Virus record (IMG/VR): IMGVR_UViG_3300029305_011823
Origin: a virus
Lineage: Duplodnaviria > Caudoviricetes
Reading direction: 5' to 3' (one strand)
Length of the DNA: 64,000 bases
Positions 24,975-45,487 of this stretch are shown piece after piece. Under the pieces are notes generated by a model. The model saw nothing but the letters and a program-made list of their open reading frames with translations, was not told the origin of the DNA and did not search any database. The position numbers and the translations under genes were made by a program. Positions within the stretch are counted from its first letter, which is position 1. Every line of letters starts with the position of its first letter.

Positions 24975-25036
24975 ATCGTTTCCTCCTTTAAAATAATATA
25001 TATTTATTGTTATGATATAAATAATATTTCACAAAT

Positions 25037-25068
25037 ATAATATATAATTGAAATATTACCTTTTTACA
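25037..25068 (-). promoter_or_regulatory. Class-1 (putative early) promoter
   Basis: 32-bp motif copy. Confidence 0.78.
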
Positions 25069-25202: not shown

Positions 25203-25287
25203 ATGTTGATAATTAATTATATGGTTTCGCTGAAATTTAATTTATATAACAAGTAATGGATTCGGGAACGTAGAAAAAAATACTAGC

Positions 25288-26358
25288 CTAAGCTAGTAAA
25301 TCAATGTAACCTAAATGATGAGCCATTGATAACATACTACACCATAAATCTTTCTCCATTTCATTTTTATCATTTGGATAATTAAATCCAAAATCTTTAT
25401 GTCTTTTCTTTAATTTATCAAACATTTTATTTGTATCTTTTTGATTTATTTTTTCACCAAATTTAGAAAGTTGATCATTGAGATCATTATATTCACATCT
25501 ATTCTTTTTATTTCTTAATGTGGTATTTTTATTTATGTTTTGGATATAATTACATATATAACATATATGACCAAATATATCTTTGTACTTATACATTATA
25601 TTTGAATTTGTATTAATTTTTATAACAATATCTGAAACTATTTTAGCAAGATCAAATAATATATCTATATCTAATTGACGTATAATATAATTTTGATTAC
25701 ATTGTTCATTTAAACTTGTATTAAGGAAATATTGTGTTAATATAAAGTTAGTTATAAATCCTGAATAAATAGCGGGATCTATAGCTGATAAAGAACTATC
25801 CAACATAGTTAATAAACGTATAACTAATTCAGCAATTGTTTCATTATGATAAGTTTGAATTGTTTCCAATGCTAAATTGTACGTTTCTTCATCTAAATCA
25901 ATATTTTTAAATTTTAATGAATTTGAATAAGCAATATTCGTTTTCTTTGATGTTGAATCTGTATAAATTTCTGTAATAATTAAACTATAATCTTTCGTCC
26001 CATCTTTTCTATTATAAGGTTTTATTTTTGCTTTGAATTTCATAATACTATCGTTAAAGAATAATTCACTATACCAATTTTCAGGAACGTTTATATGAAT
26101 ATGATCATACATAAATCTATTATTAGAATGCACGTTTATAAATGTTATAGGAATACATCCTTTAAAAGCTTTATTTCCAAATTTACCTGTACAATATGCT
26201 GAATATTCATATTCTTCATTACCTTTTTCATATCTTTCTTTTAGATTATAACGTTGGTCGAAATGATTTATTGTTATTTCTCTATTATCAATAACTCCAT
26301 GATTATCACCTATGATATATCCTTTACCAGCAGTTGTAAAATTGTTAAATTCTGACAT
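25288..26358 (-). CDS. Hypothetical protein; N-terminal possible OB-fold, helical C-terminus
   Basis: AAGGAG RBS; beta-rich DHIHI...MKFKAKIKPY...DYSL segment (OB-fold is inference). Confidence 0.75.
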   Translation of the reverse strand: MSEFNNFTTAGKGYIIGDNHGVIDNREITINHFDQRYNLKERYEKGNEEYEYSAYCTGKFGNKAFKGCIPITFINVHSNNRFMYDHIHINVPENWYSELFFNDSIMKFKAKIKPYNRKDGTKDYSLIITEIYTDSTSKKTNIAYSNSLKFKNIDLDEETYNLALETIQTYHNETIAELVIRLLTMLDSSLSAIDPAIYSGFITNFILTQYFLNTSLNEQCNQNYIIRQLDIDILFDLAKIVSDIVIKINTNSNIMYKYKDIFGHICYICNYIQNINKNTTLRNKKNRCEYNDLNDQLSKFGEKINQKDTNKMFDKLKKRHKDFGFNYPNDKNEMEKDLWCSMLSMAHHLGYIDLLA

Positions 26359-26389
26359 ATTATCACTCTCCTTTATAAAATAAAATAAA

Positions 26390-26414
26390 GGATATGCTCA
26401 TTATGAGCATATCC
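26390..26414 (-). terminator. Intrinsic terminator between the repeat RNA and the 356-aa ORF
   Basis: ggatatgctca/tgagcatatcc 11-bp stem with a minus-strand U-rich tail. Confidence 0.8.
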
Positions 26415-26435
26415 AAATAAATAATTTATAGTTAA

Positions 26436-26607
26436 GTTGTGAAGTTAGCTATAGAGACCGTCCTCTATGAGCATACAGTATAGAGACCGTCCTCTATGAC
26501 TGTACATCAGTTCACAACAATTTGATTGAAGTTAGCTATAGAGACCGTCCTCTATGAGCATACAGTATAGAGACCGTCCTCTATGACTGTACATCAGTTC
26601 AACCAAA
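26436..26607 (-). ncRNA. Repeat RNA: two identical 75-nt units, four identical bulged hairpins (C-AUAGAG-GACGGU-CUCUAU)
   Basis: Exact direct repeat 26440-26514 = 26527-26601; 21-mer tatagagaccgtcctctatga at 26450, 26479, 26537 and 26566; different but paired closing stems. Confidence 0.8.
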
Positions 26608-26634
26608 CCTATTTAATCTTTTGTTATCACCTTT

Positions 26635-26666
26635 ATAATATATAATTGAAATTTTACCTTTTTACA
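26635..26666 (-). promoter_or_regulatory. Class-1 promoter driving the repeat RNA (with class-2 AACA-AAAGAT-TA at 26625-26614)
   Basis: 32-bp motif copy pointing into the repeats. Confidence 0.78.
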
Positions 26667-26703
26667 TTTATTTATAAAATTTAATATAGCTTAACAAATT
26701 AAT

Positions 26704-26808
26704 AAGTAAAATGATGAGAGCGGATATGCATCATCTTACTTAAACATCTTACCTCTGAAGTTATTGTTTTTACTTGTCCTATACCCTTTGATTGGGTATA
26801 GGACTTTA
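26704..26808 (+). ncRNA. Candidate small RNA with anti-AUG/anti-SD segment
   Basis: AACA-AATTAA-TA at 26693-26704; 5' stem; AAACAUCUUACCUC; terminator stem 26776-26804; the beta gene has its own AACA-N6-TA at 26831-26842. Confidence 0.45.
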
Positions 26809-26882
26809 AATATCGATTTTTACCTGATAAAACAATCCTGTAAGTATATTTGAAACTAAATAATGGAAAGGGTGAGTTGTTT

Positions 26883-32790: not shown

Positions 32791-32832
32791 AAATTTGTAC
32801 CCCCTGATTTATTATATTTTTATTTCACATAT

Positions 32833-32864
32833 ATAATATAGCATTAAAATATTACCTTTTTACA
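32833..32864 (-). promoter_or_regulatory. Class-1 (putative early) promoter
   Basis: 32-bp motif copy. Confidence 0.72.
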
Positions 32865-45408: not shown

Positions 45409-45455
45409 ATACAATTACCTCCAATAATTTTATATTTTTATTTTACTTCACCTAT

Positions 45456-45487
45456 ATAATATAGCATTGAAATTTCACCTTTTTACA
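45456..45487 (-). promoter_or_regulatory. Class-1 (putative early) promoter
   Basis: 32-bp motif copy. Confidence 0.75.

Follow-up and report, generated by a model that had tools for sequence, protein, structure and literature searches.

The stretch of DNA analyzed here, 64,000 nucleotides of a Caudoviricetes virus (IMG/VR record IMGVR_UViG_3300029305_011823), referred to at its full length as the window, comes from a low-GC jumbo phage with split multisubunit RNA polymerases and carries on its minus strand a cassette in which a structured repeat RNA precedes a gene for a 356-aa protein (25288-26358). Across the homologous loci, the RNA structure is supported by covariation, the linkage and order of the parts are constant, and the repeats change along with the protein family. 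We read the cassette as a self-contained unit of the type III toxin-antitoxin or AbiF/RCd22 kind, in which the repeat RNA would be the cognate partner that binds and restrains the downstream protein, and we give this reading a probability of about one half; the layout is the same, with a promoter, a repeat RNA, a terminator, and a protein gene. The element is most readily seen as a variant of the cassettes that combine an RNA repeat, a terminator, and a protein gene, with a function that we infer. The structured RNA motif, with its covariation support, and the family of proteins with an oligonucleotide/oligosaccharide-binding (OB) fold both appear new, as neither is found in Rfam, Pfam, or PHROGs.

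A duplicated three-way-junction RNA precedes the gene

The repeats lie in the interval 26359-26849, which separates two diverging genes, the 356-aa open reading frame (ORF) on the minus strand and, starting at ~26850 on the plus strand, a large RNA polymerase beta-type gene, and no ORF of at least 30 aa runs across them. A first-pass annotation, made from the letters alone, had noticed an exact 75-nt duplication with a period of 87 and four hairpins spaced by 29, 58, and 29 nt on the minus strand, and the repeat and 18-mer counts confirmed it. Indeed, the units at 26440-26514 and 26527-26601 are 100% identical, and four copies of the 18-mer ATAGAGGACGGTCTCTAT lie on the minus strand (26451, 26480, 26538, and 26567; spacing 29, 58, 29). 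None of 100 shuffled windows contained four matches to this 18-mer (mean 0.01), and no copy of the hairpin was found in the window outside the cassette.

The minus strand folded into two three-way junctions with a minimum free energy of -87.9 kcal/mol (z = -6.65), and the fold of the plus strand was weaker (-77.8 kcal/mol). The four hairpins make up a three-way-junction module of 83-87 nt that is present twice, each copy with two identical bulged hairpins, as established by the fold, by the alignment of homologous modules described below (A2), and by the pair counts. Module A (26521-26607, minus strand) is closed by the stem P1 (26598-26607 with 26521-26530) and holds the hairpins P2 (26561-26591) and P3 (26535-26559). 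Module B (26436-26518, minus strand) is built from the same parts (P1, 26511-26518 with 26436-26443; P2, 26474-26504; P3, 26448-26472). The inner 75 nt of the two modules are identical, while the sequence of P1 differs and its pairing is retained. In every hairpin of the window, a single bulged nucleotide separates the lower stem from an upper stem of 6 bp, and the loop reads G-ACGG-U.

Rfam gave no match at the gathering level over the whole window, in agreement with the initial remark that the RNA belongs to no known family. A blastn search of the region against 50,697 phage records returned no match.

The fold is retained in homologous loci while its sequence changes

The 356-aa protein (P0001) has 10 close homologs (42-93% identity), and a profile search of 1.8 billion representatives yielded 28; all homologs originate from metagenomes, mostly from pig and other gut samples. 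The DNA around 14 homologs was fetched and more loci were obtained by scans with a two-hairpin pattern, giving 19 distinct homolog-encoding loci at 24-93% identity. Further searches for related loci with the 356-aa protein alone, a wide alignment, P0040, and P0017 added nothing new. All loci with enough upstream sequence (layout inspected in L005, L006, L008, L009/10, L011-L017, L018-L020, L051, L053, L054, and L058) share a common order: an AACA-N6-TW motif, the hairpin RNA modules, a terminator hairpin with a U-tract, a ribosome-binding site (RBS), and the homologous gene. Complete close relatives contain one or two modules, and six loci have one module only (two hairpins). The RNA had been proposed to present four protein-binding sites; identical hairpins that look like such sites are indeed presented, but their number is not essential. 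Logan short-read contigs often begin 100-145 nt ahead of the gene, within a hairpin, because repeats break assemblies.

A gap-free alignment of 17 modules from 12 loci (A2) gave a consensus in which P1 (5-10 bp) is followed by a conserved junction strand NGAUG, P2, one U, P3, and a junction strand UAAC leading back to P1. P2 is composed of a 6-bp lower stem, a one-base 5′ bulge, the upper stem AUAGAG/CUCUAU, and a hexaloop, and P3 of a GCU/AGC lower stem, a bulge, and the same hairpin as P2 (consensus AUAGAG-GRCRGN-CUCUAU). RNAalifold returned the same fold. Paired cells amounted to 94.7%, compared with 88.3% in shuffles, and the covariation score was 0.224, compared with 0.102 in shuffles; in both cases, none of 500 shuffles reached the observed value. 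Changes on both sides were found in 10 of the 29 pairs, namely all eight P1 pairs and two of the lower P2 stem, and sliding the partners cut the pairing to 22-54%. The 12 G-U cells favor the gene-sense strand (467 paired cells, against 458 on the opposite strand). The idea of a selected minus-strand RNA structure, originally drawn from covariation internal to the window, is thus borne out by 17 modules of 12 loci, in which the homologs keep the pairing while the sequence changes.

The upper stems are invariant in the 17 modules, and a compensated change to CAGAG/CUCUG occurs in L011 (42% identity). This invariance says little either way, because the family is small and fairly young. The loop exists in the versions GACGGU, GACGGA, GACGGG, GGCGGU, GGCGGA, and GGCAGG, with GGAGGU and AUACUAAG in distant members. 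Since its last base is U, A, or G among the homologs, the G-U closing pair is not conserved, and the loop is best read as a hexaloop.

Hairpins are uniform within loci and differ between them

All copies of the hairpin (bulge plus 18-mer) are identical in 12 of the 13 loci with at least two hairpins, the exception being one stem base in one of the four L054 copies, and nine versions exist between loci. L013 and L014 encode the same 359-aa protein and show 12 differences over 1794 bases, six of which fall within the 45-nt hairpin core, whereas the 1080-nt ORF has none. Within the core, both hairpins show one shared bulge change and one shared loop change, and the lower stem has two further changes. 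As the bulge and the last loop base differ beside an identical protein, they are not specificity determinants for that protein. L012 and L013 likewise encode the same protein, the former with two modules and the latter with one, and the chimeric P1 arms of the one-module forms (L013, L020) suggest that these arose by deletion between two modules. Repeats that are homogenized within a genome and change quickly between genomes could result from gene conversion, selection, or both.

In the pairs L013/L014 and L012/L015, each with an identical 359-aa protein and with one or two modules, the 45-nt hairpin core was six-fold denser in differences than the rest. The hairpin module of L014 and L015 deviates by a single base from the module of L006, a more distant locus, and this likeness suggests that the module was exchanged between lineages.

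The AUAGAG/CUCUAU hairpin is retained down to 34% identity, and L054 has two modules of this same hairpin. At ~30% identity, L051 carries a CAGAG-GGAGGU-CUCUG hairpin and L053 a UAUAGG-AUACUAAG-CCUAUA hairpin, and in both loci the altered hairpins are followed by a GCUAA(A)C-type junction and then by the terminator. The most distant locus examined (L058:1183-1427, 24%) has 4.5-5 tandem 53-nt repeats that form a different, G-U-rich hairpin (loop AGAAC, z = -12, G-U in 4 of the 10 pairs of the inner stem), also followed by a terminator, an RBS, and the gene. To judge from these sequences, keeping the order of repeat RNA, terminator, and gene while the RNA itself is replaced would be expected of an RNA working with the protein, and would not be expected of a small-molecule sensor or of a mimic of a fixed host RNA.

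Promoters and terminators frame the RNA

The RNA had been credited with its own promoters and terminator, and these signals are present: a box at 26634-26661, an AACA-N6-TA motif at 26625-26614, and a terminator at 26390-26414. The box, the "class-1" phage promoter AAAGGTAAAATTTCAATTATATATTATA (26634-26661, minus strand), is one of five copies in the window of a 28-nt promoter-like motif, AAAGGT.A.ATTTCAATTATATATTATA (828-855, 25036-25063, 26634-26661, 32832-32859, and 45455-45482); none was expected by chance, and all copies are on the minus strand ahead of minus-strand genes. The 28-nt box stands ahead of the cassette in L005, L006, L008, and L018 and not in the L009/L012/L019 group. It was also observed in the related phage contigs L002, L005, L006, L008, and L018.

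The AACA-N6-TA promoter-like motif, read from the sequence at 26614-26625 (minus strand), is what we take to be a late promoter of the AR9 non-virion RNA polymerase type. Transcription is predicted to start ~7 nt before the first stem, a position that rests on the AR9 promoter consensus; the RNA polymerase subunit of the window phage is only ~28% identical to those of AR9, PBS1, and phiR1-37. An AACA-N6-TW motif was found 8-16 nt ahead of P1 in all 11 complete leaders.

The intrinsic terminator (26377-26414, minus strand) has an 11-bp stem with a 3-nt loop (26390-26414), then UUUAUUUUAUUUU. Two terminator-like sites were counted in the region, against 0.3 in shuffles, and every homologous locus has a hairpin and a U-tract at this position, with the stem altered on both sides. 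The terminator does close the RNA, as first described, but the RNA does not stand alone, since the RBS and the ATG of the ORF at 25288-26358 follow. Indeed, the RBS AAGGAGAG (26366-26373, minus strand, read from the sequence), 7 nt before the ATG, begins the translation signals 17 nt past the terminator stem. Neither an AACA-N6-TA motif nor another phage-type promoter was found between the terminator and the RBS, and the gene would therefore be reached by read-through only. Another terminator, found by the terminator scan at 25281-25298 (minus strand), closes the cassette 3′ of the gene.

The 10-mer UAUGCUCAUA of the P2-P3 linker (26466-26475 and 26553-26562) recurs in the 5′ arm of the terminator (26390-26414; family D5), and a likeness of 7-10 nt between the linker and the terminator arm exists in most homologous loci, even where the terminator stem changed on both sides. 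The shared 10-mer may be an attenuator or switch element or the relic of a degenerate repeat. The sole candidate antiterminator, formed from the linker 10-mer, cannot out-compete the identical 5′ arm of the terminator on energy and was not relied on.

The downstream gene encodes a predicted OB-fold homodimer

P0001 (25288-26358, minus strand) belongs to no known family: searches against Pfam, PHROG, PADLOC, and NCBIfam gave no match (E up to 0.01-1). Its AlphaFold2 model, an OB fold joined to a helical domain, was obtained with a 32-sequence alignment and reached a predicted local distance difference test (pLDDT) score of 83 and a predicted template modeling (pTM) score of 0.83, superseding a poor model from 10 sequences (pLDDT 64). 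Residues 36-139 form the predicted OB fold, a five-stranded beta-barrel superposable on SSB, RPA, and the N-terminal domains of MCM and aminoacyl-tRNA synthetases. Over these residues, VIA gave Z scores of 8.7-6.7 for 50 OB-fold entries, the best match being the MCM N-terminal domain (Z 8.7, root-mean-square deviation 2.8 Å, 88 residues aligned), with Z ~7-8 to RPA, SSB, PriB, and the anticodon-binding domains of AspRS and AsnRS. Foldseek returned SSBs at a probability of 0.99-1.0 (E ~0.02-0.05, TM score by target 0.4-0.57). A shared OB fold, here a predicted one, does not show function. The residues that are invariant in the whole family (R36, N75, D85, H86, and Y115) are within or just before the OB domain.

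For the C-terminal helical domain, the fold search gave no convincing match, the best one, DdrC (Z 6.8), being within the noise for helical proteins. No ToxN-like or HEPN fold was among the matches listed, which comprise OB folds only and therefore do not exclude such folds.

When modeled as a homodimer, the protein obtained an ipSAE interface score of 0.47, compared with 0.00 for the best of three controls. This value was reached by 20 of 30 proteins solved as one-chain pairs and by 1 of 23 solved as single chains. The dimer runs agreed in at least 53% of the contacts, with a pLDDT of at least 78 for the partner, and the predicted interface is symmetric, along helix 173-199. The homodimer is thus supported by the complex predictor, in terms of model confidence rather than of a binding measurement, and a symmetric dimer would match the two identical hairpins of each module.

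The cassette resembles type III toxin-antitoxin and AbiF/RCd22 loci

Type III toxin-antitoxin loci (ToxIN, CptIN, TenpIN) consist of a promoter, tandem RNA repeats, a Rho-independent terminator, which sets a high RNA-to-mRNA ratio, and a toxin gene; the repeats are near-identical within a locus, differ between loci, and vary in number (PMC3401426). The same layout was found across the relatives of the cassette, with tandem repeats upstream under one promoter, a terminator in between, and, per locus, either 1-2 modules with 2-4 identical hairpins in all or 4.5-5 repeats of 53 nt. The suggestion of an RNA antitoxin, made in the first-pass annotation as one of two options, comes close to the best reading, although the protein matches no known toxin family. 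Established type III toxins are ~170-200-aa endoribonucleases that adopt a ToxN-type fold, and their antitoxin units are 36-45-nt pseudoknots cut out by the toxin (PMC3401426). Here, in contrast, Pfam, PADLOC, NCBIfam, and PHROG gave no assignment to ToxN/AbiQ, CptN, or TenpN by sequence, and the units are 83-87-nt three-way junctions (two hairpins 29 nt apart) or 53-nt hairpins.

RCd22 is a ~100-nt noncoding RNA of the Clostridioides difficile phi027 prophage with two abiF hairpin motifs and a strong terminator, located upstream of the toxic AbiF (RF03085 and an Abi_2 HEPN protein), and it lowers gene expression in cis and neutralizes the homodimeric protein in trans by direct binding (PMC12373285). 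The shared features are a single promoter, a noncoding RNA in which a hairpin motif is present twice, a strong intrinsic terminator followed by an RBS and a gene reached only by read-through, and a phage-borne location; AbiF is an RNA-binding homodimer, and here the dimer is predicted and RNA binding is proposed (PMC12373285). The layout of our cassette is even closer to AbiF/RCd22 than to the type III loci. Conversely, the present protein combines an OB fold with a new helical domain instead of an Abi_2/HEPN domain and has no conserved Rx4-6H motif, a three-way junction encloses both hairpins, duplicated modules occur, and the carrier is a lytic-type jumbo phage. RF03085 was not in the Rfam lists at E ≤ 10, and the protein had no match to Abi_2.

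On the type III- or AbiF-like reading, the minus strand would be transcribed from the phage promoters and most transcripts would stop at the terminator, which would leave a ~230-nt RNA in excess over the read-through mRNA. Each OB domain of the symmetric homodimer would hold one of the two identical hairpins of a module, with one dimer per module, and RNA binding would limit the activity of the protein, its synthesis, or both. A nucleic-acid-binding or nuclease activity of the free protein is one guess.

Several points weigh against this reading. The protein has no sequence likeness to ToxN, CptN, TenpN, or Abi_2, the type III antitoxins known so far are plain direct repeats that the toxin cuts into units and not three-way junctions, and toxin-antitoxin pairs are unusual in lytic jumbo phages. 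Between L013 and L014, the bulge and the final loop base do not co-vary with the protein, and the upper stem hardly varies, so that its sequence-specific recognition by another factor is possible. The short RNA, its abundance, and the read-through are, moreover, what we infer.

If the RNA does bind and restrain the protein, the design of repeat RNA, terminator, and protein would extend to an unrelated, OB-fold protein family and to gut jumbo phages, from which, to our knowledge, almost no regulatory RNA is known. It would also provide a compact modular recognition pair, with two identical hairpins per symmetric dimer and natural specificity variants. More tentatively, and with the odds leaning against it, an OB-fold homodimer of harmful or tightly dosed activity caged by a three-way-junction RNA could represent a new RNA-protein class of lytic-type gut jumbo phages, that is, a fourth, structurally unrelated type III-like toxin-antitoxin system or an RNA-caged effector. 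The fast, concerted change of bulge and loop would then reflect selection, for example, escape from a factor of the host or of a rival phage that attacks the RNA.

Alternative explanations for the repeat RNA

The evidence of linkage, order, and OB fold applies equally to a purely cis-acting autoregulatory leader, in which the protein would bind the hairpins of its own nascent mRNA and alter termination or translation. This explanation overlaps with the favored one, the sole difference being whether the RNA also acts in trans. Ribosomal-protein leaders offer a parallel, as does T4 gene 32, whose product, an OB-fold single-strand-binding protein, binds its own mRNA leader and thereby regulates its translation. 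In both gene 32 and our cassette, an OB-fold phage protein stands behind a structured 5′ leader with a U/A-rich unstructured stretch up to the RBS (U-rich between the terminator and the RBS here), but the gene 32 leader is a single pseudoknot with neither repeats nor a terminator, and there is no sequence or family relation. In a junction that is not kept folded, the linker 10-mer could base-pair with the terminator's 3′ arm; however, the proposed antiterminator competes with the identical adjacent 5′ arm and should lose. The occurrence of 1-5 identical modules, with a copy number that varies in otherwise identical phages (L012 vs L013), fits titration better than a single switch, and we consider a leader acting in cis alone unlikely.

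A stand-alone decoy or sponge for a host RNA-binding or defense protein, with the downstream gene merely co-located, was the other option in the first-pass annotation. It would account for the dedicated promoters and terminator, for the presentation of identical hairpins, and for the variable placement of the cassette. Indeed, the flanking genes vary from locus to locus, and the nearest IMG/VR relatives (RNA polymerase ~72% identical) have another gene at this site and no cassette, so the cassette is accessory and movable. The concentration of L013/L014 differences in the hairpin core (6 of 12 in 45 nt, with none in the 1080-nt ORF) could also be the mark of an arms race. However, the RNA invariably forms the 5′ leader of a single protein family; this link holds over 24-93% identity, and where the protein changes, the repeats are replaced with it.

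The searches also speak against a decoy. The hairpin was found nowhere outside the cassette in three phage records of 98-228 kb. The two-hairpin pattern was scanned against IMG/VR, the JGI metagenomes, and a bacterial genome collection. With one genome per species for 185,579 bacterial and archaeal species, it gave no true match, only unrelated GC-rich repeats. IMG/VR contained 3 true matches, and the metagenome contigs gave 18 loci, of which only L027 (same contig as L018) is a true relative, the remaining matches being unrelated repeats, mostly in GC-rich DNA. The expectation that host genomes would contain hairpins mimicked by the RNA met with single 18-mer matches at chance level only: the exact 18-mer had 7 such matches in bacterial genomes, both inspected ones inside coding frames, and one chance match in IMG/VR, inside a high-GC coding region. 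A decoy for a host protein is hence improbable.

Rather more doubtful still is an RNA acting like put of phage HK022, which directs processive antitermination, so that the repeats would modify the transcribing polymerase or serve as a site for another phage factor, and the terminator would be passed solely by transcripts containing them. The two bulged hairpins found here one nucleotide apart, just past the predicted start site and before a terminator, resemble the layout of put RNA, and the phage encodes its own multisubunit RNA polymerases. Such a role would not account for the restriction to one gene family, for the differing number of modules, or for the exchange of hairpins as the protein diverges. 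In addition, the three phage records hold no second copy, though such phages have many terminators.

A small-molecule riboswitch related to guanidine-II (mini-ykkC, RF01068) or working like it, with ligand-driven kissing of two hairpins through their CG-containing loops that controls the terminator, is very improbable. The relaxed Rfam search (E ≤ 10) returned sub-threshold guanidine-II plus noise (miRNA, snoRNA, and terminator-like small RNAs), and RF01068, the only match of note, was found twice, once per module, at 19.8 bits (E = 0.034-0.12) for a gathering threshold of 32, because the loop of the window reads G-ACGG-U. The resemblance extends to two small hairpins per unit with a short, 13-nt linker, to the terminator that follows, and to a self-complementary CG or GC in every loop version. 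Conversely, the hairpins here sit inside a three-way junction with a terminator, G-U, G/A, or G/G stands in place of the G-C closing pair, and ACGR gives way to GCGG, GCAG, and GAGG in homologs and to loops of another kind in L053 and L058. The gene has no connection with guanidine export or metabolism, and divergence of the protein would not bring about the exchange of a ligand pocket. Membership of guanidine-II was rejected on the basis of the sub-threshold score, the loss of ACGR and of the G-C closing pairs in homologs, and the gene context.

Hardly any weight is left for a DNA-level element, with the 18-bp palindromes as operators or as origin iterons like those bound by the lambda O protein: ATAGAG-N6-CTCTAT forms a perfect palindrome, its half-sites conserved and its spacer variable, and 2-4 copies lie beside the gene of a predicted dimer whose best fold match is the DNA-binding MCM N-terminal domain, but P1 and the lower P2 stem change sequence and still pair, with G-U pairs (4 of 10 in the L058 stems) that are unexpected for a protein-bound DNA duplex, and all loci have the promoter 8-16 nt before P1 and the terminator and RBS directly after.

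Other structured leaders and neighboring genes

The relatives that lack the cassette carry elements of another kind. On the minus strand of L002:4690-4780 and L004:4690-4780, a different closed multi-hairpin element was observed, in which CAACAACUUCUU...AAGAAGUUGUU encloses two hairpins, and a 39-nt perfect hairpin follows the promoter box ahead of another gene. Both could represent additional structured leaders in this group of phages.

In L011 (1284-1586) and L054 (2560-2841), a small TSCPD-domain gene comes directly after the cassette gene, followed by an opposite-strand gene of 1385-1413 aa, a link that is absent from the window.

Finally, two hairpins were observed in the window at 26693-26842, upstream of the large RNA polymerase beta-type gene (CAUCAUUUUACUUA.. 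and CCUAUACCCAAUCAAAGGGUAUAGG), and the sequence of both is kept between the window and the relatives L002-L005 (RNA polymerase ~72% identical).

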